A program made the translations under genes and the position numbers. Below the pieces are notes generated by a model that was not told where the DNA came from, ran no database searches, and worked only from the letters and a program-made list of their open reading frames with translations. Of a stretch of 47,688 bases of DNA, positions 3,208 through 47,688 are shown piece by piece; the first letter of the stretch is position 1, and the number at the start of each line of letters is the position of its first letter. The stretch covers positions 1 through 47,688 of the forward strand of contig JBIIRM010000008.1 in NCBI GenBank assembly GCA_044341565.1, in the 5' to 3' direction. The stretch comes from Minisyncoccia bacterium (GTDB taxonomy: Bacteria > Patescibacteriota > Minisyncoccia > SW-4-49-11).

Positions 3208-3208
3208 T

Positions 3209-10085: not shown

Positions 10086-10416
10086 TATCCAAGGAGAATG
10101 GTAATCGCGCATATCCATATATATGGTGAGTGAGGAAAGTCTGGACACCTATTACTTTGTAATAAATGATAGTGGGTAATACCCACCATTGAGCTTGCTC
10201 AATCGGGATAGTATCGCAGAAACAAGACATTTGAGTATATCTCATCTAAGGTGAAAAGAGATAAACCCTATCAGGTGCAAGGCCGTGCTTTTCTGTATTG
10301 AAAAGAGTGCCGCCAAGAATATGCTGGTAACAGTATATCAAGATAAATGATTACCTATGTATATTTGCTTGCAAGTATGCATAACAGAATCCAGCTTATA
10401 TTCTTCTTGGATAATT
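10086..10416 (+). ncRNA. rnpB: RNase P RNA (bacterial type A-like)
   Basis: Conserved CR-I-like GAGGAAAGTCTGGAC at 10132-10146 and CR-V-like ACAGAATCCAGCTTAT at 10384-10399. Internal GGGTAATACCCACC and AGATAAATGATTACC resemble universal rnpB elements. The P1 helix forms between TATCCAAGGAGAAT (10086-10099) and ATTCTTCTTGGATA (10400-10413) with one G-U pair. A TATAAT at 10074-10079 puts a transcription start near 10086. Confidence 0.85.
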
Positions 10417-14900: not shown

Positions 14901-15859
14901 GGGGGATTGATAATGCAGGAGAACTATCACAAGTATCAAAAACAGATTTATATGAATTATCTCGTCATCTAGGAGTAGGACAATTAAAGGGGTTAGATAC
15001 ATTAGATATTACTAATCTCCCTCCTCTTGATGAGGTATCAACTCCTACAGGATTAACTCCTCCTGAAAGTCCTAGTTCTGGAGTAACTCCTCCTGGACCT
15101 GGAGCCGAGTCTATTCCTCCAACTGATACTAATACTTTTGCTCGAGAAGTATCTCATACATTGCGTTTAGAGAATACCTCTCTCGATGATAATCAAGTTA
15201 AAGATATTTTGGAAGCATATCATTCCACTGAGCAGGGACGTAATTCTATGTATGAATTAATATTATCCGCTCCTGAAGGAGATACCTATTTATCTAATTT
15301 AGGTATTAAGACTATAGAAGATTTTTCAAATCTATCAGAGGATCAATTATATGAGCTTTCCCAGAGTATTGATTTAAACAAGCTTGAAGGATTTAATTTC
15401 AATAATATTATCTTATCTCGATTTGAAGATGCTCCAAACTCCATTCCATTGATAAAAGGAACCGGAGCTTTATCCCAAGTAAACCAGTATATTGATTTGT
15501 ATGCGGGAGCATTGCCATATAATTCTACTTTGGGACAAGAAGTATTAACTACATATTTGAATACCCCAGAAGGAAAAGATTGGCTATATGATGCTATTGT
15601 AAATAATCCAGATACATTAAATGGAAATCAAGGTATTCAAATTGCAAAAGAATATTTCCGACAAAAGGGTATACAACAGGGAACAGATATTGATTGGACA
15701 CTCTTAAGTGGAGATAAAAAAAATCCCACCTCAATTTTCTGGAGAGAGACCTCTTTGACAGGAGGAAGAAAAATCCCACCATTATCTACTCTTTTGAAAC
15801 CAGGTACAATGCCAGGTATCAAGAAAGCACTTGAGCAAGTATTAACATTAAAACAATAA
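11912..15859 (+). CDS. giant (1315 aa) hypothetical membrane protein: acidic Glu/Gln-rich N-terminal half, central TM segments, C-terminal triple repeat of about 90 aa
   Basis: Uninterrupted 3.9-kb ORF. TM-like stretches are VNLALFATSTTLALTGAGLPVAGAL and IANVAGTVVAGSLLVNLAAHAI. Repeats sit at about 14741-15010, 15131-15400 and 15520-15680 (shared pattern Q[IV]...Y..[ST].QG....[FY].L....EG...LS..GI....S..S...LYELS). I recognise no family. Confidence 0.8.
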   Translation: MGESFRQIPEDYREPNEHDRGLENGQGLIEFVSASVKKRNRFNKELGPVIGITDTDNLAKLRRKLQEELTIPQLNGNTLDLETVNFLRNRYGFDALGQEEYEVQQSQTQEVENSVEQLAPEEKISLNSLNSEQTQIVEEETGITPEIPAEQELVSEVLSPIQDQQDQITPIAEESILQNPEQVAPKEELTSENPDVQGMLAEVTAIVEAEQQEEEKLDVPEGGENKGEETERLTQEARETIAIYQKFGQEHPIFTRDQATQERYRQLEAEAWGAQNRLAHMNGGEIFALPQKRDIELSHPEAKDTKDYLESLEYGFDEKGNIITIKHHNKNIELNRPYSVANLIDKARPAQILTDINLDNIDTDLHRIGYVLPGLNPQTPDFIVSTLSKDEFIQGVIVDDIVPEQVVTPEANPEIQASSVLFPPEPTAEQLPITPVPEVNLEVENSTLEVVISPEIEQAPINPDLGSLYYQEIQLWNNIQALKERREQKEAKEEDIDTQIEKAESDYQSFINTLWGSELGRRFVQFLDLRTESAYTEEQNNKYGRDKGLLEKIRDKFSREDVSDTEELSPKDQELKARNEYNQALQELIRTESAIGLESEIQTLFATEVQRLRDERIVQSQELQEWDQTGLEKIANSTKEKLFNWYIKHKNTIGKVNLALFATSTTLALTGAGLPVAGALEAVRRTIAYPMAFASGVSSRELIRSKFEDGDVNILNIIKYKGGITKLVGESLQGNYIQEAQDTELTAKLSTLESYYRLNGGKFTELSQQKAYELILTELGQRVENQKIDDVKPDIEQPEEQETTANTGLDYNINLKDNPIEQNPNYVNSLLETVSEKRITELQRLQRNRTIANVAGTVVAGSLLVNLAAHAIKLDKPDIADTPDNLSVGTSPETATPNPTEISPVKPDIPSSEGAESMNEVAKEATQQLSTEQLQDISELSKGETLWGEIAKKLGANASEAQIQQGVETYMQSTQGSETIFNLANQTEGGRALLSQWGIDNAGELSQVSKTDLYELSRHLGVGQLKGLDTLDITNLPPLDEVSTPTGLTPPESPSSGVTPPGPGAESIPPTDTNTFAREVSHTLRLENTSLDDNQVKDILEAYHSTEQGRNSMYELILSAPEGDTYLSNLGIKTIEDFSNLSEDQLYELSQSIDLNKLEGFNFNNIILSRFEDAPNSIPLIKGTGALSQVNQYIDLYAGALPYNSTLGQEVLTTYLNTPEGKDWLYDAIVNNPDTLNGNQGIQIAKEYFRQKGIQQGTDIDWTLLSGDKKNPTSIFWRETSLTGGRKIPPLSTLLKPGTMPGIKKALEQVLTLKQ

Positions 15860-15860
15860 T

Positions 15861-16277
15861 ATGGCAAATCCAGAAGACAATATTATCGCATTATTAGGAC
15901 TAGAAGATTTACCTGTTGAGAATAGAGCTCAATTAGTGGATGAATTAACCCAAATTCTTGAAGTTCGTGTACTCAGTGCCGCTTATGATACATTGAGTGA
16001 AGATCAGGCAAAACATTTAGATACACTACTTAATGAGAATAATCCAGAAGTAGTCACTACCTATATTCAAGAAAATGTTCCAACTCTTAGTGATATATTT
16101 GCCAATCAAATAGAAGTATTAAAAGAGGAATTAGTACAACATAAAGAGAAAATCACCAAGAATTTGACACAAGAATTAGAACTTGAGCATAATCACGATG
16201 AAGATGATGGACATACTCATGAACATGGAGAAGATCATATTCACACAGAATCAGGTGACGAAAATCCTACAGAATAA
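15861..16277 (+). CDS. small acidic protein with a His-rich C-terminal tail
   Basis: It starts 1 nt after the giant gene's stop, so translational coupling is likely. The tail is ELEHNHDEDDGHTHEHGEDHIHTESGDENPTE (about 16182-16277), and the rest looks helical and acidic. Confidence 0.7.
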   Translation: MANPEDNIIALLGLEDLPVENRAQLVDELTQILEVRVLSAAYDTLSEDQAKHLDTLLNENNPEVVTTYIQENVPTLSDIFANQIEVLKEELVQHKEKITKNLTQELELEHNHDEDDGHTHEHGEDHIHTESGDENPTE

Positions 16278-17384
16278 TTATCCAATTACTGGTATAGAGA
16301 ATCTAGGTTCGGGGCTTGATTTACGAGATTTTTTGGCTTCAAATGTATTGAGATAAGCATAGTGATATTTATGTACTTGTCCTTCAATAGATAATATATC
16401 TTGAATTATTGGCATATATTCTGAGGCTATGCGCTTGAGAATAGGATACATATCCTCAATAATATTGAGCCCGGTTACAATAGAGCTATAATTATAAGGA
16501 GTAAAGAATATTCCATTTGCTTTTATTAATTCTTGATTATATTCTCCTTTTGAAGCAAGAACAGGAATCCCAGCAATTAGAGCTAGGGATAGAGGATATT
16601 TATCTTCATTATTCGGAGAAATTTCTACAAATATATGAGCATTTTGAATCAGAGACTGTTCGGTATTCCCGCTTAATTCTCCTACAAAAAGCATAGTATC
16701 ATTTTGATAAGACTCACGTATAGATGGCTTTACTTTACCCAGTACAATAACAGGAAGATTCAGATTATGTTTGCGATATGCCTTTAACCATAATTCTAAA
16801 CTTTCAGAATCTCTATATTGCCCATTATGAACCAGAATATATTCTTGAGGATATAAATCTTTGAAATTATTTTGAGAATTTACAATAGAAGCAGTATCAA
16901 TTCCTGTTGGTATACTATATACTTTTGATTTAAAAGAAGCGTTTAGGAGAGTTTGTAATTCTGGATTATCTATAATCAAAGAATCAGAAAACTGAGCAGA
17001 TATATAAGAGAGTAGCATATAGCGTCGTCTATTCTTTTTGCTATTGACAAAAGTATATTGATGATAATCAAAAATAACCCTTACTTGAGGCATTTGTAAT
17101 GATACCCAAAAAGCCACCCAAGCATATTCTAGCGATCTAATATGTACAATATCAAGATTTTCTATTTTCCGGAGCTCACGAATAATGGACTTAACTTTAG
17201 GTTGACTGGGAATAATATGAATATTCTTATATTCCGTTAATTGGGTGTAATTAGGGTCTGAGAGCACATATACAGAATGTCCTCGTCTTGCCAATTGAGT
17301 CGCTACAATTTCACAATTATACTCATTTCTATCTCGAGTATTTTGATAAGGAATTCCTCTGGTACCAACAAATGCTATGACCAT
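16278..17384 (-). CDS. glycosyltransferase (GT-B fold, GT4-like)
   Basis: The N-terminus MVIAFVGTRGIPYQN...ATQLARRGHSVYVL and the C-terminal half (LFVGELSG...EISPNNEDKYPLSLALIAGIPVLAS) fit GT-B glycosyltransferases. The track start at 17408 is a TTG, and ATG at 17384 is preferred. Confidence 0.75.
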   Translation of the reverse strand: MVIAFVGTRGIPYQNTRDRNEYNCEIVATQLARRGHSVYVLSDPNYTQLTEYKNIHIIPSQPKVKSIIRELRKIENLDIVHIRSLEYAWVAFWVSLQMPQVRVIFDYHQYTFVNSKKNRRRYMLLSYISAQFSDSLIIDNPELQTLLNASFKSKVYSIPTGIDTASIVNSQNNFKDLYPQEYILVHNGQYRDSESLELWLKAYRKHNLNLPVIVLGKVKPSIRESYQNDTMLFVGELSGNTEQSLIQNAHIFVEISPNNEDKYPLSLALIAGIPVLASKGEYNQELIKANGIFFTPYNYSSIVTGLNIIEDMYPILKRIASEYMPIIQDILSIEGQVHKYHYAYLNTFEAKKSRKSSPEPRFSIPVIG

Positions 17385-17453
17385 ATGGGATATTAGTTCT
17401 ACAGACAAAAACTATAGCATAAAATAGCAGTTTTGTCAATTTCTGATATTATT

Positions 17454-17956
17454 TTTCCACCCCTTTCCCTGCTACCCCTCAATTTATCTCCCGTAGGGAG
17501 AGAGGGGAATTAGCTAAGTCCACACCCGTCGACTTTGTCGACACCCTCGCCGGCGAGGCCTGCCTGCGGTAGGCAGGGACAGTTTTATTGTCCTCCCTTG
17601 GGGGAGCTTTGGTTCCTCCTATATTTGTTTAGGAGGGGGTGCCCGTAATAGACTGAAGGTCTGGGAAAGGGGTCGGGAAAACAGAAGTTTTCCCGTGGAG
17701 GAAGGTTGGGAAACCGTGAGGTTTCACAGGAGCAAATCCCATTTGCGACGGGGGAGGGAGGATAGAGTTTAAGTTTGTATTTTATCCACCCCGTCCAGCA
17801 AAGCTGTCCACCCCTCAAGAGGGGAATATATACAATGTACTGTCCTAAAAATTCCCCTCATGGGTTGTGAGTAGATAGGAGTCAGTATATAACAAAGTGC
17901 TTTGTCCGAAAAATTCCCCTCTTGAGGGGTGCCGTCGCTAGACGGCGGGGTGGAAA
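17454..17956 (+). repeat. G+C-rich mosaic stem-loop cassette, copy A (the largest), bounded by a 10-nt inverted repeat
   Basis: TTTCCACCCC (17454-17463) and GGGGTGGAAA (17947-17956). At least 11 short perfect GC-rich hairpins are present. The backbone is shared with 38577-38778, 42131-42206 and 47131-47305. Confidence 0.85.
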
Positions 17957-17959
17957 GTA

Positions 17960-18913
17960 TTACAATAACTCTCTATTCACAAAATACACCCCTGCATATC
18001 CATTCGCAAAGCTATCAGCAGTAATAGTATTTTTCCCCTCTACAGTTAATTCTTTGACCGCAATATTACCTATTTTTGTCCCAATAATCAGATTGTGACT
18101 GACAGAATCTAATTGCCAATATCCTGGCTTAAGTTTAATATCAGATATATGCTCAAGATCTAATCTATCCAATACTACTTTTTTGTCCGTATTGAGATAG
18201 GTATATACTTGTGGCCAAATAGTATAAGCTCTATAGGCATTATTAATGTCCTCGGCTGATTGACTCTCCCAATCAATAAGCCCATCCATTTTTTGAACCA
18301 TTTTCACAAAACTAGCTTTAGCATCATCTTGAACCCAGGGAGTAATTTCTCCATTCATAAAAGGAATAAGATTTTGTCTCAATATATCAGCCGCAACAGT
18401 GATAATTTTTGCCTCAAGTTCAATATAGGTATCGGTAGGAGATATAGTGATTTCCTCTTGAGCAATAATAGGTCCATGATCCATCAAATGATCAATTTCC
18501 ATCAAACTAACAGCAGTACTCTTGTCTCCATTACGGAGGCTCGCCTGTATAGGAGATGGCCCACGATACTGAGGTAGTCTTGAAGGATGAATATTCAACA
18601 CTCGATGAGGCATAATATCTAATATAGCTTGCGGAATAATTTTACCATAGGCAATAATTAGCCAAATATCAGCAGATAATCCTCGCAATAATTCACTAGT
18701 CTCAGGAGCTTTGAGAGAATGAGGACTATACACGGGAATAGAATGACTTTCCCCAAATACTTTGAGAGGACTAGGAGTTAATATTCTTTTACGCCCCTGC
18801 GGAGTATCAGGAGTAGTAATAATAGCCACAATATCAGCCCAATCGAGTAGAGACTCAGCAATAGCAACCGTAAGCTGAGGAGTACCCCAAACTACAATAC
18901 GGGGTTTAGACAT
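17960..18913 (-). CDS. fmt: methionyl-tRNA formyltransferase
   Basis: PRIVVWGTPQLTV...TTPDTPQGRKR...LNIHPSRLPQYRGPSPIQASLRNGDKSTAVSLMEI...MDHGPIIAQ. The start is probably ATG 18913 (MSKPRIV), which overlaps the def stop by 8 nt. The alternative start is 18925. Confidence 0.93.
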   Translation of the reverse strand: MSKPRIVVWGTPQLTVAIAESLLDWADIVAIITTPDTPQGRKRILTPSPLKVFGESHSIPVYSPHSLKAPETSELLRGLSADIWLIIAYGKIIPQAILDIMPHRVLNIHPSRLPQYRGPSPIQASLRNGDKSTAVSLMEIDHLMDHGPIIAQEEITISPTDTYIELEAKIITVAADILRQNLIPFMNGEITPWVQDDAKASFVKMVQKMDGLIDWESQSAEDINNAYRAYTIWPQVYTYLNTDKKVVLDRLDLEHISDIKLKPGYWQLDSVSHNLIIGTKIGNIAVKELTVEGKNTITADSFANGYAGVYFVNRELL

Positions 18914-19424
18914 ACATTTTCCCACTTTGTTTTAGCTTTACAGGAAGAGCCTTATCTGCGAATAATACGCCATCAAGATGATCAATTTCATGTTGCAGAA
19001 TTCGAGCAAAAATTCCAAAAGCCTTACCAGCAATTTTCTCACCTTTTAGATTAAGCCCCGTAAATTCAATACTCGTAGGACGAATCACATCAGCAAAATA
19101 TTCAGGTAAAGACAAACACCCCTCTTCCATAGTAGCAGTATCCTTACTTAAAGCGGTTAATTCAGGATTAATAATTACATAATGTTGATCCAGAGCACAA
19201 TCCTCAAATCCTGACTCTTCAAAATGATCTCCTGGGACATTAATCAAAATCAATCGCACATTATGTCCGACTTGTGGAGCAGCAAGCCCCATACCATGAT
19301 GAGGTCTAATACTAGATTTCATATCTCGAGCTAATTTATGAATATCTCGAGTAATAGAATCAATAGGTTCAGATTTGGTACGGAGAATAGGATTTTTAAG
19401 CCCTGTTTCAATATCAAGAATCAT
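18906..19424 (-). CDS. def: peptide deformylase
   Basis: The three PDF motifs are present: GLAAPQVG, EGCLSLP and HEIDHLDG. Confidence 0.96.
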   Translation of the reverse strand: MILDIETGLKNPILRTKSEPIDSITRDIHKLARDMKSSIRPHHGMGLAAPQVGHNVRLILINVPGDHFEESGFEDCALDQHYVIINPELTALSKDTATMEEGCLSLPEYFADVIRPTSIEFTGLNLKGEKIAGKAFGIFARILQHEIDHLDGVLFADKALPVKLKQSGKMYV

Positions 19425-19483
19425 ATAATGCTATAACAATTTGTTACTATATTATAGCATAAATGAGGCAAAAAAGCAAGATG

Positions 19484-30061: not shown

Positions 30062-31408
30062 ATGGCAGGGAATAATTCTCTTGATTCATTTACCAAAAAT
30101 CGCAACGTAATTATTATTGCTGGTGTCGCTATATTAGCTATTGTTATATTGATGCTTGGTAATGCGCTTGGATTCAAAATTGGAGGTGAGAAAAAAGTAC
30201 AAAAAGCAAATTTGGTAGTATGGGGAGTCTGGGATGAAAGTGAGACAATGACGAAATTGGGAAGTGATTTTCGTAAAATATATCCTAATGTAAGTATAGA
30301 ATATCGTAAATTCAAGCCACAAGATTATGAGACAGAACTTATTAATGCTTTAGCTGAGGGACGAGGTCCAGATATATTGGCAATGGAGAGAACTTGGCTT
30401 GGTAAACATAAGAATAAGTTAGCCCCAATGCCAGAAGAAATTATGACACTCAAAGAGTATCAAGATACTTTTGTAGATGTGGTTAATCAAGATTTTATTG
30501 ATGAGGGTAAAATATATGGATTCTCTCTATACACCGATACTTTAGCATTATTATATAACAAAGATGCTTTTAATGATGCTGGAATTGCAAATCCACCAGT
30601 AACTTGGGAAGAATTACAAAGTATAGTACCCAAATTAACTAAAATAGATCAATTTGGTGAGATTAAACAGGCGGGAGTTGCATTAGGTACAGGAGATAAT
30701 ATAAATCGTTCACCAGATGTTTTGATGGCATTAATGTTACAGTCTGGAGCTCAATTTACTGACCCTAAAGATACTAGTAGAATTACTTTTTCTCAAAGTA
30801 AAAATGTCAATGGACAAAATATAAATCCTGCTCAATTATCTTTAGCTTATTATACCGATTTTGCTAATCCTCGAAAAGGAGTATATACCTGGAATTCAAC
30901 CTTAAATAATTCAATAGATGCTTTTTATGAAAGAGAAGTTGCTATGATATTTGGATATTCATATCAGGTAGAAGCAATTAAAGCAAAAGCCCCAAGACTT
31001 AATTTTGCAGTAGCTCCTCTCCCTCAGGTATCTACAGATTCTGGCCTTGCTAATTTTGCAAATTATTGGGGATATGGAGTAAGTGGTCAATCTAAATACC
31101 CAAAAGAAGCCTTTGCATTCCTCAAATCAGCCACTGAAAAGGAAAATGCTCAAGAGTATTTCTTGAAAACCAAGCGCCCAACAGCCAGAAGAGATTTAGT
31201 AGATACACAATCACAAGACATTGATTATGGAGTATTTGTAAAACAAATATTACAAGCTAAAACCTGGAGACAACCCGATAATAATTCAGTAGATAAAATA
31301 TTTATCAATGCTATTAATGGAGTAAATTCAGGATTACTTGACTATAGTAAAGCTATTTCGCAAGCTCAAACAGAAATACAGACATTAGCTGATAATGTGA
31401 AAAAATGA
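30062..31408 (+). CDS. ABC-transporter-type extracellular solute-binding protein (family 1, sugar-like), N-terminally membrane-anchored
   Basis: TM anchor VIIIAGVAILAIVILML, then VVWGVWDESE...YPNVSIEYRKFKPQDYETELINALAEGRGPDILAM...YNKDAF, typical of SBP_bac_1. No permease or ATPase gene is adjacent. Confidence 0.8.
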   Translation: MAGNNSLDSFTKNRNVIIIAGVAILAIVILMLGNALGFKIGGEKKVQKANLVVWGVWDESETMTKLGSDFRKIYPNVSIEYRKFKPQDYETELINALAEGRGPDILAMERTWLGKHKNKLAPMPEEIMTLKEYQDTFVDVVNQDFIDEGKIYGFSLYTDTLALLYNKDAFNDAGIANPPVTWEELQSIVPKLTKIDQFGEIKQAGVALGTGDNINRSPDVLMALMLQSGAQFTDPKDTSRITFSQSKNVNGQNINPAQLSLAYYTDFANPRKGVYTWNSTLNNSIDAFYEREVAMIFGYSYQVEAIKAKAPRLNFAVAPLPQVSTDSGLANFANYWGYGVSGQSKYPKEAFAFLKSATEKENAQEYFLKTKRPTARRDLVDTQSQDIDYGVFVKQILQAKTWRQPDNNSVDKIFINAINGVNSGLLDYSKAISQAQTEIQTLADNVKK

Positions 31409-32730
31409 AATATATAAAGTTCAGTATAGTTTTTGGTATAATATTCTTAGTAGTTTCATTTTTTAGTATTAACTATACTAATGCACAGAGTGCAGATGGA
31501 GCTTGTAGTGCAGGGGCAACATCATTAGAGCAAAACTGTACTTTTCAAAATGGAAGCTCTCGTTTAAATGGAAAATGCCAGGTTAAAGATAAAAATAATC
31601 CAGGTTTAGGATTAACTTGTCGTACTAGCTTAGGATCATCCTGCTCAGGTGATACTTGTCAAAATGGATTAGCCTGTATTAATCAGGTTTGTTCCAGTCC
31701 AAGAGGGGCTAAAACTCAAGGTCAATCTTGTTCAGGGAATGGAAATGAATGTATTGCAGGTCTTGAATGTAGAAATTTTATATGTACAAAAGAAGCTGCC
31801 ATTACTGGTGGAGGGTCTGGGCAAACTGGAGGTGGTCAAGTCGGTACCCCTGGAGGCTCAACAGGGGCAGAAACAGGCCTTGTTAAATGTGGAGTGAGTC
31901 GAGATTGTACTATTTGTGATATATTTATCTTAATTCGAGATATCTTTAATTTTGCTTTAGGGCTACTAGCCTCACTCGCGGTATTAAGTGTTGTTATTGG
32001 TGGGGTCTATGTGTTGACTTCAGCAGGTAATCCTGGAGCGGTAAGTACAGGATATGGCATTATTACCAATGCAGTAATTGGACTATTACTCGTAATGGCA
32101 AGCTTTCTCTTATTTAGTTTCCTTCTTGTGGGGCTTGGATTTCAAGAACAAAATTTCTCAGCTGTACTTACTTTTCAACCAGGTAAAGTATTCGAGGTAA
32201 AATGTGATAATGCTAGTACTTTTAATGATAATGGATCAAATGGAGGAGGGTCTGCTGTACTGGGTAATGGTGGGAGTAACTCATCAACTATAAGTTGTGC
32301 GAGTTTAAATGATTCGGTTAAGGCGGATTTAAATAATGCTAGTTCTCAGACGGGTGTTCCTTCTGAACTATTGGCTGGAATTATGCAAAGAGAATGTCCT
32401 GCAGCCTTTAATAATGCTAATGCTTGTCCAAATGAAAATGGCTCTGGAGCAGCTGGAGCAGGTCAATTTTTACAAAGTAGCTGGAATGAGCTGGGATGTA
32501 GTGGAAGTAGAACGAATCGAAGAGATGCCCTTGTTTGTATGGGGAAACATTTAAAACGGTATAATAAATGTTCTAGTCAATGTAATGGATATTCTAATTT
32601 TTCATCCAGAGCTTGTTCTGATTGTGTGGCAGGAGATTATTGTGGTGCATGTTCAGGTTCATCAGCTTGTGGAGGTAATTATTGTGATGGGGTGTGGAGT
32701 AACTATCAAAAATTTAAAACATGTAAATAA
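31405..32730 (+). CDS. secreted Cys-rich domain, T4SS-pilin-like TM hairpin and C-terminal Cys-rich lytic-transglycosylase-like domain (fusion)
   Basis: Signal peptide MKYIKFSIVFGIIFLVVSFFSINYTNA. Cys-rich repeats follow the pattern C.G..C..GL.C.N..C. The pilin core is FNFALGLLASLAVLSVVIGGVYVLTSAGNPGAVSTGYGIITNAVIGLLLVMASFLLF (about 31897-32155). The SLT-like motifs are ELLAGIMQRECP...GAAGAGQFLQSSW (about 32302-32730). The ATG overlaps the SBP stop (ATGA). Confidence 0.7.
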   Translation: MKYIKFSIVFGIIFLVVSFFSINYTNAQSADGACSAGATSLEQNCTFQNGSSRLNGKCQVKDKNNPGLGLTCRTSLGSSCSGDTCQNGLACINQVCSSPRGAKTQGQSCSGNGNECIAGLECRNFICTKEAAITGGGSGQTGGGQVGTPGGSTGAETGLVKCGVSRDCTICDIFILIRDIFNFALGLLASLAVLSVVIGGVYVLTSAGNPGAVSTGYGIITNAVIGLLLVMASFLLFSFLLVGLGFQEQNFSAVLTFQPGKVFEVKCDNASTFNDNGSNGGGSAVLGNGGSNSSTISCASLNDSVKADLNNASSQTGVPSELLAGIMQRECPAAFNNANACPNENGSGAAGAGQFLQSSWNELGCSGSRTNRRDALVCMGKHLKRYNKCSSQCNGYSNFSSRACSDCVAGDYCGACSGSSACGGNYCDGVWSNYQKFKTCK

Positions 32731-32734
32731 TAAT

Positions 32735-33841
32735 ATGAATAAAATCTTCAGTCTATTTTTACTAATAGCATCTTTCTATTCTATTTCTCCAGTATATGCA
32801 GATACTAGTATATACTCAAGTTTCTTATATCCAAGTTTTGCTGTAAATAATGAAATTTTATATTTTGATCAATATGCAGGAGCTATTGTGAAACAAAATG
32901 TTATTACTGGTGAGAAGTCAGAGATATTTGATTTAATACCTTCTGCTACTAACTTAGTATCAATTTCTCCTGAACAATCTAAAATATTACTTTATCCTCC
33001 TAATATATCATTTCCAAAATATCAAGCACCATTTTTTGATAGTTCAAGAAAATCTCCCGATAATCAATGGTGGGTATATGATTTTAATACAACAAATAAA
33101 ATACTACTAGATGATAAAATTAATTTAGTTGGCTGGTATTCTGATAATGAAATTATATATGTATTTAATAATAAAGATATCACAGTTGCCCCAACCAATG
33201 ACCTATCTAAATTTAATATTCTATACTCTAATATACCATCTAATGTGGATATTAATAAACAAATTATAGCAAATGATAACCATCAAATAATTCCATTAGT
33301 TGATGGTTATCTTGTGGGAAATAAGAAAAACTTTGTATATCAAAAAAGTACTAATTATCAAATTTCAGCCAATCCAAAATTGAATTATTTTTTGGAATAT
33401 AATAATAGTCAGATAAAAGTTTTTGATTGGGATAGTAAGCAAGTAGGTAGTATTATTAATATCAGTAACAGGAAAGCTTTGTTACTGAATAATGATACTA
33501 TAGCTATATTGGCTACAAATGGTAATTTGATACAATATAATTTACAAGGGCAGGAGCAATCAAATGTATCATTAAATCCAATAGTTACTGATATATATTC
33601 GGTTGATCAATCTGGAAATGAACTATTAATTAATCAAAATAATCAAATACGTACTTATAATTTATTAAAAAAAGAGCAGGGAACCATCCTATTATCCACC
33701 AATACTCCTACTCCTAATACTGACACAAATTCAGAGACAGAACAATCCAACACATTAGGGAATATTGCTATTTTAATAGGAGGAATAGTATTCCTTGCTG
33801 GGGGACTGGGGCTATTTATTTGGAAATTAAGAAAAAGATGA
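32735..33841 (+). CDS. secreted beta-propeller-like protein with a C-terminal TM anchor
   Basis: The true start ATG 32735 gives the signal peptide MNKIFSLFLLIASFYSISPVYA. The body is Asn/Ile-rich and beta-strand-like with PD40/TolB-like strings (ISPEQSKILLY, WWVYDFNT). The C-terminal anchor is IAILIGGIVFLAGGLGLFIWKLRKR. Confidence 0.6.
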   Translation: MNKIFSLFLLIASFYSISPVYADTSIYSSFLYPSFAVNNEILYFDQYAGAIVKQNVITGEKSEIFDLIPSATNLVSISPEQSKILLYPPNISFPKYQAPFFDSSRKSPDNQWWVYDFNTTNKILLDDKINLVGWYSDNEIIYVFNNKDITVAPTNDLSKFNILYSNIPSNVDINKQIIANDNHQIIPLVDGYLVGNKKNFVYQKSTNYQISANPKLNYFLEYNNSQIKVFDWDSKQVGSIINISNRKALLLNNDTIAILATNGNLIQYNLQGQEQSNVSLNPIVTDIYSVDQSGNELLINQNNQIRTYNLLKKEQGTILLSTNTPTPNTDTNSETEQSNTLGNIAILIGGIVFLAGGLGLFIWKLRKR

Positions 33842-33871: not shown

Positions 33872-34711
33872 ATGAAATTAATCATATCTACAGCATTTGG
33901 AATTGTCTTTGCACTAGTATTCTTTAGTAATTCTAATATAACACTTGCTCAATGTGGAAGTGGTCCAAGCTGTACAGGGAATTTTGTTTGTGTGAACGCA
34001 GATGGTACTCCTAAATGTTTGCTAAATCAGGTTAGTAATAATGGTTTATGTGAGGGCGACTCTTCTGTGAAATGTTCAGCAAATCAAGCTTGTATTCAAA
34101 ATAATGCAACAGAAATTGTATGTGCCCCTTTAGCGGGATCATCAGCTAATACAAATTTACCAGGTTCTGGAAGTACAACAACTTGTCCAACCTGTAAATC
34201 TGGTGAAACATGTATTAAGAGTGCAGCAGGACCACTCGTATGTAGATCCGCCGCTACAAATTGTACTCCTGCTTGTACAACAGGTAAGGTGTGTGTTAAA
34301 GCAACGCCAACAGCAACTACTGGAACTTGTGTAGATAATGCGCCTACTCAAGCTGCTGGAGGAGCTGGTGGTAATGGTGCTGGAGGGAATGGATCTTCAG
34401 GAGGAAGTGGTGGTGGCTTATTAGAAGGTCTCAATGCTTTTGGTAGTGCAGATTCTGGACTTAATACAGAGGGAACTCTCATTGGGTTTATTTCTAATAT
34501 TATTCGTTGGATATTAGGACTTCTTGGAACTGTGTTCTTTGTAATCATAGTTTTACAAGGGTATCTTTATATGACATCTTCAGGAGATGCGAGTAAAACA
34601 GCAGCAGCTACGGGGGCTATTACTAATGCAGTAATAGGACTACTGATTATTATGGGAGCTTTCCTCATTACTAATTTTGTGACAAGTGGTTTGATTGCCG
34701 CTGGGTCTTAA
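33872..34711 (+). CDS. T4SS-pilin-like protein, paralogue 1, with a long Cys-rich N-terminal extension and Gly-rich linker
   Basis: Signal peptide MKLIISTAFGIVFALVFFSNSNITLA, then about 20 Cys in C..G..C-type repeats and the linker AGGAGGNGAGGNGSSGGSGGG. The pilin core is IIRWILGLLGTVFFVIIVLQGYLYMTSSGDASKTAAATGAITNAVIGLLIIMGAFLITNF. Confidence 0.8.
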   Translation: MKLIISTAFGIVFALVFFSNSNITLAQCGSGPSCTGNFVCVNADGTPKCLLNQVSNNGLCEGDSSVKCSANQACIQNNATEIVCAPLAGSSANTNLPGSGSTTTCPTCKSGETCIKSAAGPLVCRSAATNCTPACTTGKVCVKATPTATTGTCVDNAPTQAAGGAGGNGAGGNGSSGGSGGGLLEGLNAFGSADSGLNTEGTLIGFISNIIRWILGLLGTVFFVIIVLQGYLYMTSSGDASKTAAATGAITNAVIGLLIIMGAFLITNFVTSGLIAAGS

Positions 34712-34721
34712 TATCTTATAT

Positions 34722-35069
34722 ATGATAGAAGCATTTATATCCAATTTCATCATAGTAACAGCTAAAGCCCAGGAGACATCGCCTCCTCCTATATTAGCTA
34801 TACCTACAGGAACAGGAGTGGGGGAGCAAGGAGATCTGTTTACTTTTGTGTCAGCTATTGTGCAATGGGGATTGGGATTAATAGGGATAGTATTATTTGT
34901 ACTTATACTCTTTTCTGGATTCCAATATGCAACAGCAGGGGGCGACTCTAAAAAAACTGAAGAAGCTATTAGTAGAATTACTTCTGCAGTAATCGGAGTA
35001 TTCATTGTAGGGGTGGCTTTTATACTATCCAATGCAGTATTAGGATTTGTTTTTAGTCTAGGATCTTAA
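34722..35069 (+). CDS. T4SS-pilin-like protein (TrbC/VirB2-type two-TM hairpin), paralogue 2
   Basis: The core is IVQWGLGLIGIVLFVLILFSGFQYATAGGDSKKTEEAISRITSAVIGVFIVGVAFILSNAVLGFVF. The start is trimmed to ATG 34722, after the upstream stop at 34711. Confidence 0.8.
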   Translation: MIEAFISNFIIVTAKAQETSPPPILAIPTGTGVGEQGDLFTFVSAIVQWGLGLIGIVLFVLILFSGFQYATAGGDSKKTEEAISRITSAVIGVFIVGVAFILSNAVLGFVFSLGS

Positions 35070-35097
35070 TATACTGACTTATCCACAATAGTATCAC

Positions 35098-35126
35098 TTG
35101 CATAGTAATATAAGATATGATAGTAT
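35098..35126 (+). promoter_or_regulatory. candidate promoter for pilin paralogue 3
   Basis: TTGCAT (35098-35103), a 17-nt spacer, then TAGTAT (35121-35126) in the 100-bp A+T-rich spacer. Confidence 0.25.
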
Positions 35127-35169
35127 AAAAACATAGAACATATTATTCAATAATTATTAAGATATTCTT

Positions 35170-35553
35170 ATGAATACTTCCCAGATAAAATCAATAGCAA
35201 CAAGAGCATTATTACCTGTATTAGTATTAGCTCCTACTTTAGCTGGAGCTGCAACTCCCATAAAAGATACTAGAGTCATAGGTGAAATACCTCAAGTAGC
35301 TGGTACTAATCAATCTACTGACCTTGTGGCTACAGTACAAGTGGTTATTCAATGGGCATTAGGATTTATCGGAATTGTAATATTCATTATTTTCTTATTT
35401 GCAGGATTTGAATATGCAACAGCAGGAGGAGATGAAGGAAAAGCAAAAACTGCACAGTCTCGAATGATTAACGCGGTAATTGGACTTATTATTATATTCT
35501 TTGCCTTTGTAGCTTCAAATGCAATATTGTCATTCGTATTCCCAGGAAATTAA
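35170..35553 (+). CDS. T4SS-pilin-like protein, paralogue 3
   Basis: Signal-like N-terminus ...LVLAPTLAGAATP. The core is VIQWALGFIGIVIFIIFLFAGFEYATAGGDEGKAKTAQSRMINAVIGLIIIFFAFVASNAILSFVFP. Confidence 0.85.
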   Translation: MNTSQIKSIATRALLPVLVLAPTLAGAATPIKDTRVIGEIPQVAGTNQSTDLVATVQVVIQWALGFIGIVIFIIFLFAGFEYATAGGDEGKAKTAQSRMINAVIGLIIIFFAFVASNAILSFVFPGN

Positions 35554-35573
35554 TCAAATTGATAGATACTATG

Positions 35574-35610
35574 AAACAATAAAAAGGGATTATATCCCTT
35601 TTTATTGTTT
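35574..35610 (+). terminator. rho-independent terminator-like hairpin after pilin paralogue 3
   Basis: AAACAATAAAAAGGGAT-tat-ATCCCTTTTTATTGTTT is a 17-bp perfect stem whose 3' arm carries a T-run. Confidence 0.65.
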
Positions 35611-35697
35611 AGAGAATACATATTCAAATAGTATAATCTTCTTGTCAGATAATAGAATACTTGATATACTTGTAATATATAGAATAGTAAAATAGAT

Positions 35698-36114
35698 ATG
35701 AGAGTCTTATTGATTATAATAGCTTTATTGATGGGGGTATTTGTATTAAGTTCTAATATATCTCTAGCTCAAAGAGCCCCTGATGCCACTCTCCCTGGTC
35801 CAGGAACAATCCCAATTAATACCGGAATAGCTGAGGGACCAAGCTTGATAGAAACAGTGTCTATTATTATAAGGTGGATATTAGGATTTATTGGAATTAT
35901 AATATTTATTATATTCCTATATGCAGGATTTGAATATGCAACAGCAGGAGGGGATGAGAAGCAGGCTGAATCAGCTCAAAAAAGAATGGTAAATGCAATC
36001 ATAGGACTGATTATTATATTCTTTGCATTTGTATTGTCGAATGCAGTATTAAGCTTTGTATTTCCTCCAGACGATACAGTAGATGATCCTAATATGCCAT
36101 TAAATGTAAATTAG
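35698..36114 (+). CDS. T4SS-pilin-like protein, paralogue 4
   Basis: Signal peptide MRVLLIIIALLMGVFVLSSNISLA. The core is IIRWILGFIGIIIFIIFLYAGFEYATAGGDEKQAESAQKRMVNAIIGLIIIFFAFVLSNAVLSFVFP. Confidence 0.85.
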   Translation: MRVLLIIIALLMGVFVLSSNISLAQRAPDATLPGPGTIPINTGIAEGPSLIETVSIIIRWILGFIGIIIFIIFLYAGFEYATAGGDEKQAESAQKRMVNAIIGLIIIFFAFVLSNAVLSFVFPPDDTVDDPNMPLNVN

Positions 36115-36115
36115 T

Positions 36116-36556
36116 ATGAAATATCTATCAATAGTAATAATTGCAATAATGATACTAATGAGTAATCCTTTTATTAGCTTTGCAGGTACCCCATCAGGGG
36201 GAGGAACTACTCCAGCTACGGGTGGTACTCCATCAGGGGGAGGAACTACTCCAGCTACGGGTGGTACTCCCACAACCCCAACTGACAATACTTCTGCTCA
36301 AAGTGTAGGATTTGTGAATCCAATTCGATTTAATTCTATCCCTGAGCTTATAGCAGGTATTATCAATGCTCTCTTGGGTATACTCGGAGCTATTACTGTG
36401 GCAATATTAGTGATGTCAGGATTTAAATATATGACAGCTTCTAATCCAGGAGCAGTAGGGCAAGCTTTAGATGGTATTAGGAATGCAATTGTAGGACTTA
36501 TGATTATTATGGGGGCTTTTCTCATCACACAATATATTATATCTGCTTTGGTGTAA
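36116..36556 (+). CDS. T4SS-pilin-like protein, paralogue 5, with a tandem Thr/Pro/Gly repeat
   Basis: Signal-like MKYLSIVIIAIMILMSNPFISFA, then (GTPSGGGTTPATG)x2. The core is IINALLGILGAITVAILVMSGFKYMTASNPGAVGQALDGIRNAIVGLMIIMGAFLITQY. Confidence 0.85.
   Translation: MKYLSIVIIAIMILMSNPFISFAGTPSGGGTTPATGGTPSGGGTTPATGGTPTTPTDNTSAQSVGFVNPIRFNSIPELIAGIINALLGILGAITVAILVMSGFKYMTASNPGAVGQALDGIRNAIVGLMIIMGAFLITQYIISALV
36185..36262 (+). repeat. two tandem copies of a 39-bp coding repeat
   Basis: GGTACCCCATCAGGGGGAGGAACTACTCCAGCTACGGGT (36185-36223) is repeated at 36224-36262 with 2 substitutions. Each copy encodes GTPSGGGTTPATG, and a partial third unit (GTPTTPT) follows. Confidence 0.9.
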
Positions 36557-36574: not shown

Positions 36575-36598
36575 CACCCTGTACTTTCGTAAAGGGTG
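36575..36598. terminator. hairpin between convergent genes; the T-run is on the minus strand
   Basis: CACCCT(g)TAC-tttc-GTA(a)AGGGTG. On the minus strand it is followed by TTTTTCTTT, so it best fits the terminator of gene 36613-37323. Confidence 0.55.
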
Positions 36599-36612
36599 CT
36601 ATGTATCTATAC

Positions 36613-37323
36613 TCAGCGAGCTTGTATCACTGGGTATCCAGATTGCCCACCTGGCATCTTCTGGTAATATTCATAATCATTATTAACATCTGCTCCGATA
36701 TTAAATTTCCTTTTAATATCGGGAGTATATTGTTTACCAAATACTCCTAGGGATATTTTGATCCTTTTCCCAGAAAGTGATGAAGGTAAATCGTGGCATT
36801 TAGCGTAAGGCTCAATAACCCTCCAATTGTCACCAATGGTAACCTCTTGATTTATCCAGTGTTTCTCTGGATGGCCAGTCTGTTTGAAGCAGACCTTGAG
36901 AGGTCGTGCTGGGAGATCATACTCACCATCACGATTGATCACGATGGGAGTCATTTCCCCGGGGGGATTGAGTTGTGCCTGCCTTGCACTATGTATGCTC
37001 TGGTTGAAGTTAGCTGAGCAATAGTTCAAGAGGAGAATTACTCCAATCACAGTAGCAGCAAACCTGAGCTTGCTATTGAGTACCGCTGCAATTATAGTAA
37101 TGGCCATCAAAAAGAATATCTCACCATCAGAAATACTTCCTCCGATGAGAATCATTTTGGCCCCCAACCAAAGACCAGCCAAACTAATCAGTAAAACTGA
37201 CCAGTTCAGTCCGCGAGCTTTACTCCACAAATTCCCAGAACTTGCCGGAGATGGGGAGGAGTTTGTGGATGATGAGGTGTTTGAGCCTCTAGATCCACGG
37301 GACCCGTATTGACGATTTGTCAT
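36613..37323 (-). CDS. hypothetical membrane protein: Ser-rich N-terminus, 3 TM segments and a soluble domain of about 120 aa
   Basis: MTNRQYGSRGSRGSNTSSSTNSSPSPASS, then TM segments (WSVLLISLAGLWLGAKMILIGG, IFFLMAITIIAAVL, FAATVIGVILLLNY). It is visibly more G+C-rich than neighbouring genes. I recognise no family. Confidence 0.65.
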   Translation of the reverse strand: MTNRQYGSRGSRGSNTSSSTNSSPSPASSGNLWSKARGLNWSVLLISLAGLWLGAKMILIGGSISDGEIFFLMAITIIAAVLNSKLRFAATVIGVILLLNYCSANFNQSIHSARQAQLNPPGEMTPIVINRDGEYDLPARPLKVCFKQTGHPEKHWINQEVTIGDNWRVIEPYAKCHDLPSSLSGKRIKISLGVFGKQYTPDIKRKFNIGADVNNDYEYYQKMPGGQSGYPVIQAR

Positions 37324-37395
37324 GATAAAATGAACGAATTACTTTCTATATATAGCATATTTTAGGTAAAATGTCAATATTTATAGACAATAAAA

Positions 37396-37418
37396 AAGCC
37401 GTGACATTGTCACGGCTT
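37396..37418 (-). terminator. rho-independent terminator of the SPFH gene
   Basis: AAGCCGTGAC-att-GTCACGGCTT is a 10-bp stem. On the minus strand it is followed by TTTTTTATT, and it lies 17 nt after the stop at 37435. Confidence 0.8.
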
Positions 37419-37434
37419 GGTAATATGCTGCTGA

Positions 37435-38460
37435 TCAGTCTTTGGAAGCTTCGAGAGCTCCCAGGACTTGATTTGCTATATCTTGCCCTTTACCCCCTCC
37501 ATGGAAAATAACTTTGGCATTGGTACCAAGAGTTTTTTCCAAAATAGGATATTGGGCGAGTTTAGCAAAAAGCTGTTGCTCTGAGATATCAGAGCCCATT
37601 GCTCCAGCTTTAATTGCAGCTGTGAATCCTTTGGTTTCAGCCAATAGATTCTCATTCTGTTGCTTAATAACCAGACCACGGGCTGTCTCGCGATCGAGAT
37701 CAGCTTTTTGCTCAGCTTTTGCTATGGCAGATTTATTCTTGGCATCATTGACCTCGGACGGTAACTCTAAATCATCTATATTTATTGCAGATAGCTCAAT
37801 ACCAATATTATCTAGTTTCTTCAGAATGGTCTTACCAAGAGCAAGAGCTTCAATATCCTCTGTAGTATCCATACCCTTAATACGAGATCCATCTTGCTCC
37901 AGACCAAGAGCTTGAAGTAATTGATCAGGAGTCATTGTAGATATTTGAATATCCTGAACCTCTTTACCCGCAGCTATATGCTTGGAGTATTCTTGATAGG
38001 TATGTTGTTGCAGTACTAGACGAATATAAGGGTTCAAGATGCGTTCAGTTGCCTGACGTTCATCCTGATCCTCTGCATTATAGTGCAAGTTATAAACATG
38101 CTTTATTTTTTCCTGCAGAGTATTTCCTTTAATTTGAGCAATTACGCTAACTCTTGCTTCTAGAGTAACATCAGCCAATTCTAATTTGGCAAAGTCATCA
38201 GTACTAGGAGCATCAGATCTATCCTGAGGGGCTACTTTTCTAGGCCCGTCATGTCTAAAAAGATAGACAGGAAACTGGTTGGTTTCATACCATCCAGCTA
38301 ATTTTGATCCCGGTACAATCAGATGAGGTCCCGGAGTAGCAATTTTGGAAAGAATTCCACTCCCATTATGATTTGGACGGCTTCCTAACCATGAAATCAC
38401 ATGAACTTCATCATCAGGTACAATCCAGATAGGGGGGATAAAGAAAGAATCAAAGGCCAT
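37435..38460 (-). CDS. SPFH/Band-7 (prohibitin/flotillin-like) domain protein without an N-terminal TM segment
   Basis: IWIVPDDEVHVISWLG...GPHLIVPGSKL, then IGIELSAINIDDLELPSEVNDAKNKSAIAKAEQKADLDRETA, matches the SPFH core and the following Ala/Glu-rich helix. G+C is visibly higher than the surroundings. Confidence 0.7.
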   Translation of the reverse strand: MAFDSFFIPPIWIVPDDEVHVISWLGSRPNHNGSGILSKIATPGPHLIVPGSKLAGWYETNQFPVYLFRHDGPRKVAPQDRSDAPSTDDFAKLELADVTLEARVSVIAQIKGNTLQEKIKHVYNLHYNAEDQDERQATERILNPYIRLVLQQHTYQEYSKHIAAGKEVQDIQISTMTPDQLLQALGLEQDGSRIKGMDTTEDIEALALGKTILKKLDNIGIELSAINIDDLELPSEVNDAKNKSAIAKAEQKADLDRETARGLVIKQQNENLLAETKGFTAAIKAGAMGSDISEQQLFAKLAQYPILEKTLGTNAKVIFHGGGKGQDIANQVLGALEASKD

Positions 38461-46974: not shown

Positions 46975-47060
46975 GGAGAGTTCGCATAGTTGGTCTAGTG
47001 CGCACGCTTGGAAAGCGTGTATACCGCAAGGTATCAAGAGTTCGAATCTCTTACTCTCCG
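46975..47060 (+). tRNA. tRNA-Ser (anticodon GGA), class II with a long variable arm
   Basis: Acceptor GGAGAGT/ACTCTCC plus discriminator G. D-arm GCA/TGC with a GG loop. Anticodon stem CACGC/GCGTG with loop TTGGAAA. Variable arm ATACC-gcaa-GGTAT. T-arm AAGAG-TTCGAAT-CTCTT. No CCA is encoded. Confidence 0.93.
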
Positions 47061-47063
47061 CAA

Positions 47064-47101
47064 AAATTAAAAATAGGGGTTTTTGCCCCTATTTTTAATT
47101 T
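47064..47101 (+). terminator. long hairpin terminator after tRNA-Ser
   Basis: AAATTAAAAATAGGGG-tttttg-CCCCTATTTTTAATTT is a 16-bp perfect stem. Confidence 0.7.
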
Positions 47102-47130
47102 CCGTGAGTTAGTAAAGAGAAATTCGAACT

Positions 47131-47305
47131 CGGGAAGGGGTCGGGAAACGGAAGTTTCCTGTGGCGGAAGTAATCAATACCCCTAGATAGGAAGGCAATG
47201 AGGAGCTTGCTCCGAATGTCGGAAACCGTGGGTGTCCGAGATGGGGTTGTAGGGGTATTGAGGGAACTGAGGGGGTTTCAAAGAGCAAATCCCATTTGCG
47301 ACGAG
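47131..47305 (+). repeat. G+C-rich mosaic stem-loop cassette, copy D
   Basis: CGGGAAGGGGTCGGGAAACGGAAGTTTCCTGTGGCGGAAG (47131-47170) is colinear with 17662-17704. GGAAACCGTGGGTGTCC is present. The 21-nt core GAGCAAATCCCATTTGCGACG (47283-47303) is identical to 17730-17750. More hairpins follow up to about 47413. Confidence 0.85.
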
Positions 47306-47325
47306 TTCGGAATCTCTTACTATCT
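47303..47325 (+). repeat. degenerate direct repeat of the tRNA-Ser 3' end (att-like)
   Basis: GAGTTCGGAATCTCTTACTATCT compared with GAGTTCGAATCTCTTACTCTCC in the tRNA (47038-47059): one inserted G and two substitutions near the 3' end. Confidence 0.75.
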
Positions 47326-47512
47326 ATATTCCGACACTCGGGAATAAATCCCTCGCTGCCTTCCTGCACGGGGGATTTTGCCTTCATACATACGATGTAT
47401 GAAATCCTGAAGGAGTTATTTAGATTCAAACTTCATTTTTAATTGGACTAAATAAATTTTAGTTGGTATTCTATTTATTAGGTGGTATATCAGTTAATCT
47501 AAAAATAATTTT

Positions 47513-47688
47513 ATGTTGAATATATTGTTTTTAATATTACCATTGGCGATAGTAGATAGCTTAAATCCCTTTACTATTGCAACACATGTTTTTTTATTAA
47601 CCACAAAGAATCCTTTGCCAAAGGCAATTTTTCATATTATTGGTATCTATTTAATGTATTTGATAGGTGGTATTTTAATATTTTTAGG
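47513..47688 (+). CDS. 5' end of a polytopic membrane protein gene (GAP/Sap-like; partial, runs off the window)
   Basis: ATG 47513 opens a frame with no stop up to the window edge: MLNILFLILPLAIVDSLNPFTIATHVFLLTTKNPLPKAIFHIIGIYLMYLIGGILIFL. It is absent from the ORF track because it is unterminated. Confidence 0.55.
   Translation, partial: MLNILFLILPLAIVDSLNPFTIATHVFLLTTKNPLPKAIFHIIGIYLMYLIGGILIFL

Follow-up and report, generated by a model that had tools for sequence, protein, structure and literature searches.

Organization of the array

The 47,688-bp contig JBIIRM010000008.1 of a Minisyncoccia bacterium (assembly GCA_044341565.1), which was analyzed whole and is called the window below, has about 34% GC and carries on its + strand a tandem array of genes for membrane-hairpin proteins of a type IV secretion system (T4SS) pilin family, PF18895. 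An initial annotation had described five such genes between 33872 and 36556, and all five + strand open reading frames (ORFs), here p1 to p5, were present there. When all six reading frames of the window were searched with a hidden Markov model (HMM) of the family, six PF18895-type modules were found (E 2e-63 to 4e-7), the next ORF having an E-value of 0.34; there were no copies beyond the six. The array of five was thus real but incomplete. Because the overlooked gene, p0, belongs to the array, the array starts at 31405, about 2.5 kb upstream of the start given earlier, and a non-pilin gene, X, lies inside it.

The first gene, p0 (31405-32730, +), encodes 441 aa. A signal-like leader (residues 1-27) is followed by a Cys-rich N-domain with 14 Cys (residues 28-165), the hairpin module (residues 169-243; DNA 31909-32133), a disordered Gly/Asn/Ser linker and a Cys-rich, lysozyme- or lytic transglycosylase-like C-domain (residues ~295-441; DNA 32287-32727). 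X (32735-33841, +) is a 368-aa protein that by hydropathy has a signal-like N-terminus, an ectodomain of about 320 aa and a C-terminal transmembrane (TM) anchor followed by KLRKR; searches of Pfam, NCBIfam and the PDB gave no match for it. The 279-aa p1 (33872-34711, +) has a leader, an extension of about 175 aa that is Cys-rich (16 Cys) and Gly-rich, and the module at residues ~201-279. In p2 (34722-35069, +; 115 aa) a short, atypical leader (MIEAFISNFIIVTAKAQ) precedes a Pro-rich linker and the module. The most conserved member is p3 (35170-35553, +; 127 aa). p4 (35698-36114, +; 138 aa) carries a 16-aa acidic and Pro-containing tail C-terminal to the module, and p5 (36116-36556, +; 146 aa) has an N-extension of TP/G repeats, encoded by a 39-nt tandem DNA repeat of 2.2 copies at 36185-36270 with 97% match (Tandem Repeats Finder).

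By hydropathy p1 to p5 are built on a common plan: each starts with a signal-like segment and ends in two hydrophobic helices, with a variable region between. The two-TM hairpin layout proposed initially was therefore borne out for all five, and for p4 it was seen in an AlphaFold2 model as well. That model, built with 66 aligned homologues, had an overall predicted local distance difference test (pLDDT) score of 75.5, with a leader helix at residues 2-19, a disordered linker, and a hairpin of helices 50-82 and 87-121 at pLDDT 85-93. The module is a hydrophobic two-helix hairpin of 75-80 aa with a polar loop, G-F/Y-x-Y-A/M-T-A/S-G-G-D; this loop and the lead-in helix of the module are strongly conserved. 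Within the array, full-length identity averages 23% and reaches 50% at most, and the p3 and p4 modules are 70% identical.

The leaders look cleavable, with a conserved site between Ala and Gln, cleavage sites having been judged by eye. The p2 leader (34722-34772) is unusual in being very short and in having an acidic rather than a basic n-region (MIEAFISNFIIVTAKAQ, then E). The start of p2 is most likely the ATG at 34722, since all orthologues begin there, and the leaders of the orthologues are similarly short, ending in AQAQ before E. Because the leader is short, has an acidic n-region and is kept in orthologues, it may be a non-standard Sec signal peptide.

The regions upstream of the modules had been called unrelated to each other. 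The Cys-rich, Pro-rich and TP/G extensions were found as described, but they are not all unrelated, because two features recur: p2 to p4 have Pro-rich linkers of 25-30 aa with a Pro/Gly lead-in common to all three, and p0, p1 and the p5 orthologues have a C-x-G-x-C...C mini-repeat in common in their Cys-rich extensions.

Family membership of the module

The assignment to the T4SS_pilin family of the candidate phyla radiation held up. Against the PF18895 gathering score of 26.6 bits, p1 to p5 all scored above it, at 37.9, 41.6, 35.9, 39.8 and 39.5 bits, respectively (E 8e-9 to 1e-10). p0 fell just below, with 26.3 bits at residues 176-240, and it matched the family HMM at E 4e-7; further, 56 of its 57 homologues matched PF18895, and its AlphaFold2 model had a hairpin of helices 169-205 and 210-243 at pLDDT of about 80-87. 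Some p4 homologues are already named secretion-system pilins by NCBI. On these sequence comparisons, membership of the array proteins in PF18895 is established.

The locus is an instance of the VirB2-like pilin arrays already published for the Patescibacteria. Quinonero-Coronel et al. (2025) used PF18895 among their profiles, found VirB2-like proteins in 1948 VirB4-positive assemblies, and described 441 arrays of 2-11 genes, either in tandem or with one non-pilin gene between (PMC12102498). The present array fits that description because its mean and maximum identities of 23% and 50% compare with published values of about 25% and 54% (PMC12102498). Like the arrays of Ca. Southlakia epibionticum ML1 and Nanosynbacter lyticus TM7x, it belongs to the same phylum and consists of PF18895 genes of low identity in tandem, with or without one non-pilin gene; the Southlakia array even has the same copy number, six. 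There are also differences. Published arrays are most abundant in Microgenomatia and Saccharimonadia, whereas the array here is in a Paceibacteria-type lineage. The Southlakia pilins are inside a T4SS cluster, whereas the present genes lie between gyrA and the rpsL operon. A pilin-lysozyme-fold fusion of the p0 type goes unmentioned in the Patescibacteria array papers (PMC12102498, PMC10633639).

Wang et al. (2023) found that predicted pilin subunits lie inside an essential T4SS cluster of Ca. S. epibionticum (PMC10633639), the pilin subunits themselves being essential (PMC10633639; PMC12857230). Few gene sets have been shown to be essential for a cultivated Patescibacterium to live as an epibiont, and T4SS-associated pilin arrays belong to them. 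The locus described here is a well-delimited example of the Paceibacteria type. The fusion, the swapped extensions and the Mycoplasma link described below are useful details that leave the published general picture unchanged.

A second family also matched. NCBIfam NF045849, the "Mbov_0395 family pilin-like conjugal transfer protein" of Mycoplasma integrative and conjugative elements (ICEs), has an equivalog cutoff of 40 bits. It matched p1 to p5 at E 1e-6 to 1.6e-10 (8.6e-10 for p3) over 69-76 of its 80 model positions; p4 was above the cutoff at 40.6 bits, and p3, p5, p2 and p1 were below it at 38.2, 34.1, 32.9 and 28.0 bits. NF045849 gave no match for p0. The matches indicate homology of the module, as judged by profile similarity, rather than equivalog membership, and NF045849 provides an independent link between the module and conjugation machinery. 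The Mycoplasma protein resembles the array proteins in its hairpin of about 80 aa, and both hosts are genome-reduced monoderms with a VirB4 of, or within, MPF_FATA; it differs in being single, small and encoded on an ICE, whereas here there are six copies with large extensions on a housekeeping chromosome. Monoderm MPF_FATA systems are said to have no VirB2 homologues (PMC12102498), and small ICE membrane proteins of mycoplasmas have been described as VirB3-like (PMC12857230); for these reasons the Mycoplasma link may be under-appreciated. As a sequence bridge, it bears on where the "pilin" of the Patescibacteria and other monoderms arose.

A lysozyme-like domain fused to the first module

The C-domain of p0 was compared with known folds and families, and its AlphaFold2 model contained blocks of up to pLDDT 92. 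Among the best 50 Foldseek matches in the PDB, all were GH23 lytic transglycosylases or g-type lysozymes (MltF, Slt, MltC, MltE, the phi6 lysin and a GH23 chitinase), with probabilities of 0.95-1.0 for the best two dozen, mostly above 0.8 overall and 0.60 at the lowest, and with TM-scores of about 0.5 to single-domain targets. A profile of the C-domain family searched against the PDB found lysozymes only, weakly (E 0.06-0.4). At E<=1e-3, 7 of the 57 p0 homologues matched SLT (PF01464) and 4 of the 57 matched SLT_3 (PF18896), and several carry the JGI name "muramidase (phage lysozyme)."

A Glu followed by G-x-x-Q was found by inspection, with no structure-based residue mapping, in all three versions of the C-domain in related genomes. 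The motif reads LLAGIMQRE...GAAGAGQFLQ in the window; in the L003-type domain it is AIIDEGEG...SAGFTQ, and in the L007-type domain AISVYET...ASGRYQI (L numbers denote related loci, introduced below). A strict regular expression for the catalytic residues matched 20 of the 57 p0 homologues, several of the matches being in linker or low-complexity sequence away from the catalytic site, and the commonest C-domain type, YE(G/T)...GRxQ, escapes the pattern.

Because of the SLT matches of the homologues, the Foldseek result, the family profile and the kept Glu and G-x-x-Q, the C-domain was read as a lysozyme-fold hydrolase. It is probably a VirB1-like peptidoglycan hydrolase displayed outside the membrane, with a predicted activity; the assignment rests on fold and family evidence, each line of which is modest. 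The initial statement that there is no secretion machinery nearby needs qualifying for the same domain: no gene for a T4SS ATPase or channel was found in the window, but p0 bears a domain of VirB1-like lysozyme fold.

The p0 architecture also bears on topology. With Cys-rich domains on both flanks of its hairpin, the simplest arrangement is N-out, loop-in (cytoplasmic) and C-out, and we infer that the array proteins adopt this topology, as VirB2-type pilins do. The position of p0 at the head of the array has a parallel as well: of the seven canonical MPF_T loci that were retrieved, five have a virB1-type lytic transglycosylase gene as the next gene upstream of virB2. By analogy, p0 would parallel the virB1-virB2 gene order, here as a fusion. 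The likeness to Agrobacterium VirB1-VirB2 and to TrbC pilins extends to the leader with two hydrophobic helices, to the peptidoglycan hydrolase immediately before the pilin, and to the amphipathic lead-in motif, which aligns in register (I..W.LG here, NI.TFI.G in TrbC/VirB2). In MPF_T systems, however, VirB1 is a separate protein, whereas here the transglycosylase-like domain is fused to a pilin module, no virB3 or virB4 is found among the neighbors of the array in the window, and the host is a monoderm. With a muramidase-like domain fused to a pilin module, a connection of the array to the breaching of cell walls becomes testable.

Conserved modules and exchanged extensions in related genomes

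The closest GyrA relatives of the window are metagenome-assembled genomes of Parcubacteria, Paceibacteria and Minisyncoccia. The nearest, L003 (CAZPCB010000001.1, a 299-kb contig), is 99% identical in GyrA and about 92-94% identical in DNA. Its record is titled "Candidatus Saccharibacteria," a label that is probably wrong, because the next GyrA relatives (78-91%) are titled Parcubacteria, Paceibacteria or Minisyncoccia and identity to the GyrA of true Saccharimonadia is only about 52-54%.

The order gyrA-methyltransferase-solute-binding protein (SBP)-p0-X-p1-p2-p3-p4-p5 was kept in L003, L005 and L007, and in L004 and L009 as far as the contigs reach. This synteny persists down to 78% GyrA identity, from which it follows that the paralogues arose long ago and have kept their positions. 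The orthologues of this positionally conserved six-gene cassette allow evolution of the core to be separated from that of the extensions. Identity to L003 was 99% for p3, 97% for p2 and 84% for p4; p3 was 72-73% identical to its orthologues in L005 and L007 and 60% identical to that in L009. For the modules, the ratio of nonsynonymous to synonymous divergence (dN/dS) was 0.05-0.44.

The extensions behaved differently from the modules. The p0 C-domain occurs in three versions among related genomes. X keeps its position in L003, L004, L005, L007 and L009, and its ectodomain is exchanged, giving versions of 368-374 aa and of 224-228 aa. Orthologues of p1 vary in the N-extension and range from 135 to 279 aa in total length, and the p5 orthologues of L003, L005 and L007 have a Cys-rich domain of about 150 aa (290-299 aa in total) in place of the TP/G repeat. 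The swapped segments have no DNA-level alignment even with the 93%-identical relative. Four segments in and next to the array are replaced outright, namely 32250-33679, 34132-34409, 36124-36299 and 36575-37656. Purifying selection thus acts on the modules, and between related genomes the extracellular extensions are exchanged; the orthologue comparison upholds the earlier idea of a conserved core with variable extensions.

Synonymous divergence (dS) from L003 (its positions 16513-19452) was mosaic. It was 0.02-0.035 for p2 and p3 (0.035 for p2), 0.36-0.43 for gyrA, gatB and the SBP gene (0.34-0.43 for the flanking housekeeping genes), and 0.5-0.9 for p4, p5 and the N-terminal part of p1 (33872-34470). 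This mosaic suggests recombination or allele replacement within or beside the array, the alternative being strong codon constraint on p2 and p3 of the kind found in highly expressed genes. The virB2 arrays of Bartonella and Anaplasma phagocytophilum are comparable in being tandem, divergent pilin genes, for which a role in diversifying surface interactions is presumed (cited in PMC12102498). Those genes are canonical TrbC/VirB2 genes in diderm MPF_T clusters, whereas here the paralogues are old and positionally conserved, with variation mainly in the appended domains.

A proposed role in a T4SS pilus or conduit

On balance we favor, as the probable reading, a conserved chromosomal cassette of six PF18895 paralogues and one membrane-anchored surface protein that serves a VirB4-type T4SS pilus or conduit. 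Our confidence is high for the family and for the identity of the array, and about even for polymerization. The proposal is that Sec insertion and signal-peptidase cleavage between Ala and Gln would leave hairpins pooled in the membrane, each with its two termini outside, and from this pool a VirB4-type T4SS encoded elsewhere in the genome would extract them to polymerize a pilus-like or conduit structure. The short and most conserved members, p2 to p4, would be the bulk subunits; p0, p1 and the p5 orthologues, with their large Cys-rich extensions, would be minor, tip or base subunits presenting host-binding domains. The muramidase-like domain of p0 may act in the role of VirB1 by making an opening for the structure in the peptidoglycan of the cell itself or of its host, and swapping of extensions may adapt the structure to different host surfaces.

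That the array is apart from any T4SS genes had been considered a puzzle, but such separation is common: VirB4 is found in 2417 of 3035 Patescibacteria genomes (80%), and among the 1948 VirB4-positive assemblies with VirB2-like proteins, the pilin gene is near virB4 in only 1135 and away from it in 813 (PMC12102498).

A number of results weigh against the proposal. Consistent with the initial annotation, no VirB4, VirD4, VirB6 or VirB11 came up when all ORFs of 90 aa or more in the 47.7-kb contig, except a 106-aa ORF at 47109-47429 (-), were scanned with Pfam, so that the assembling machine is assumed. A VirB2-type helical filament would be crowded if every subunit bore a domain of 150-200 aa. 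To our knowledge, pili have not been observed on any Patescibacterium. The loop between the helices is about 18-20 residues long, as against about 5 in VirB2. For the C-domain of p0 itself, the SLT_2 score was sub-threshold (15.6 bits; cutoff 24.3), and its Foldseek E-values were 0.02 or worse. A relation to the classical pilins was also hard to find. TrbC (PF04956) matched p4 alone, at a non-significant 11.6 bits (E 0.34); for seven VirB2/TrbC proteins annotated on plasmids, HHalign gave a probability of 5.5% (P 0.007); and a PDB profile search with 66 family members gave no matches at E<=10.

The HHalign alignment did place 53 columns in register, covering the lead-in motif, TM1 and TM2, a result to be read with the knowledge that TM composition alone can yield a P of 0.007. 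The hairpin is generic in fold searches, which could not tell a specific likeness to solved conjugative pilins from a likeness to other helical hairpins. Canonical TrbC/VirB2 homology was not demonstrable by Pfam, PDB profile or HHalign, and the label "TrbC/VirB2-type" given to the array initially has no significant sequence support.

Given these results, we wondered if the hairpin might be a mere shared membrane anchor, by which the six proteins, kept in the cytoplasmic membrane as monomers or small oligomers, display variable extracellular domains such as Cys-rich binders, a muramidase and Pro-rich stalks, with neither T4SS nor filament. The large globular extensions on both sides of the p0 hairpin, the N-domains of 150-200 aa in p1 and the p5 orthologues, the presence in the cassette of X, a conventional single-pass anchored surface protein, the window without T4SS genes and the generic behavior of the hairpin in fold searches would all fit. 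On the other hand, p2 to p4 display little beyond the hairpin and a 25-30-aa linker, for which a structural subunit is the better fit; the conservation of the polar loop and lead-in helix exceeds what a passive anchor needs; and the module matches the conjugation-element family NF045849. Further, the family is near virB4 in 1135 assemblies (PMC12102498) and is essential within a T4SS cluster (PMC10633639). We therefore judge the anchor explanation unlikely.

Less likely still is that the module is an inner-membrane channel or assembly component of a T4SS, VirB3/PrgI-like as proposed for Mycoplasma ICE CDS13 and CDS15, rather than a polymerizing pilin. VirB3-type proteins do not have cleaved signal peptides, which counts against this explanation, as does the lack of a Pfam VirB3 match at E<=1 among the paralogues. 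A stoichiometric channel part would not be expected to occur in six divergent copies whose extracellular domains are swapped, and separate PrgI/VirB3 homologues are already widespread in Patescibacteria (PMC12102498). The best sequence relative outside the Patescibacteria is, it is true, the small Mycoplasma ICE protein of NF045849, and small ICE membrane proteins of the wall-less mycoplasmas are called VirB3-like (PMC12857230), but NCBI's own name for NF045849 is "pilin-like." Patescibacteria VirB4 nests within the monoderm MPF_FATA systems, which otherwise have no pili (PMC12102498), and this also speaks for a channel component. A phage-derived or mobile lysis or antagonism module, a holin-like hairpin plus lysozyme rather than a surface structure, is suggested by the joining of a two-TM hairpin to a lysozyme-fold domain in p0 and by the phage-lysozyme name of its homologues. 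This we consider highly improbable: five of the six genes have no enzyme domain, the proteins have signal peptides and Cys-rich ectodomains, Pfam scans found no integrase, relaxase or phage genes among the window ORFs, and down to 78% GyrA identity the cassette is fixed between gyrA/methyltransferase/SBP and the rpsL-rpsG-fusA operon. The mobile-element or lysis-cassette reading was rejected on this conserved housekeeping synteny.

A broader version of the favored pilus or conduit reading, which we put forward only tentatively and think unlikely, is that a VirB1-VirB2 fusion is hidden in the array, with a divergent, Cys-rich lytic transglycosylase borne by a pilin hairpin, and that the module, given its clear match to a Mycoplasma ICE protein, was inherited with the monoderm MPF_FATA machinery rather than co-opted from diderm T4SSs. 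If true, the p0 fusion would supply the "missing" VirB1 function, which in the literature is inferred to be dispensable in most Patescibacteria, and hairpin "pilins" would be an overlooked ancestral part of monoderm T4SSs. The mosaic divergence would then come from recombination that shuffles host-binding extensions on a conserved polymerizing core.

Other features of the window

The contig otherwise carries ordinary chromosomal genes, including those for FtsK, enolase, RecJ, PriA, Def, Fmt, GreA, MetRS, GatB, GyrA, MgsA and an RND transporter, together with the rpsL-rpsG-fusA operon, a type IV pilin-like protein, RNase P RNA and tRNA-Ser. The FtsK at 3164-5365 is a genuine FtsK, as it has the alpha and gamma domains, and the unannotated ORFs of the window are not polytopic. 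The array is flanked by gyrA, a methyltransferase gene and the SBP gene on one side, and by genes for a 3-4-TM protein, an SPFH protein and rpsL on the other. Scans for promoters and terminators were uninformative in this AT-rich DNA, with 57 promoter-like sites where 40 were expected.

A motif scan of the 80 GyrA loci for ATPases found only FtsH and, in Saccharimonadales, a TraG-D_C/TrwB-like ATPase. The latter, too distant to serve as a probe for VirB4, is a membrane ATPase of 930-990 aa with TraG-D_C and TrwB_AAD_bind domains (L034:2440-5226, L040:2919-5846, L046:1144-4071 and L052:4078-7047). It resembles T4SS coupling proteins and is encoded a few kilobases upstream of gyrA, in loci where a search with the module HMM gave no pilin modules.

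Directly downstream of the array and convergent with it, 36613-37323 (-) encodes a protein of 236 aa that matches no family, is Ser-rich at its N-terminus and has 3-4 TM segments. Because there is no DNA-level alignment with L003, this region is another variable spot. Beyond it lies the SPFH/Band 7 gene (37435-38460, -). At the start of the contig, 696-2771 encodes a large type IV pilin-like protein with an N_methyl motif, two Laminin_G_3 domains and fn3; type IV pili are a pilus system distinct from the array. An ORF at 11912-15859 encodes an acidic, Glu/Gln/Leu-rich protein of 1315 aa that has at most one weak hydrophobic segment and matches nothing in Pfam or NCBIfam; the gene after it encodes a DUF5663 protein (15861-16277). 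The last ~600 bases (47100-47688) contained no convincing ORF and no Rfam match. The RNA genes are a class A RNase P RNA (140 bits) at 10089-10414 and tRNA-Ser(GGA) at 46975-47061.

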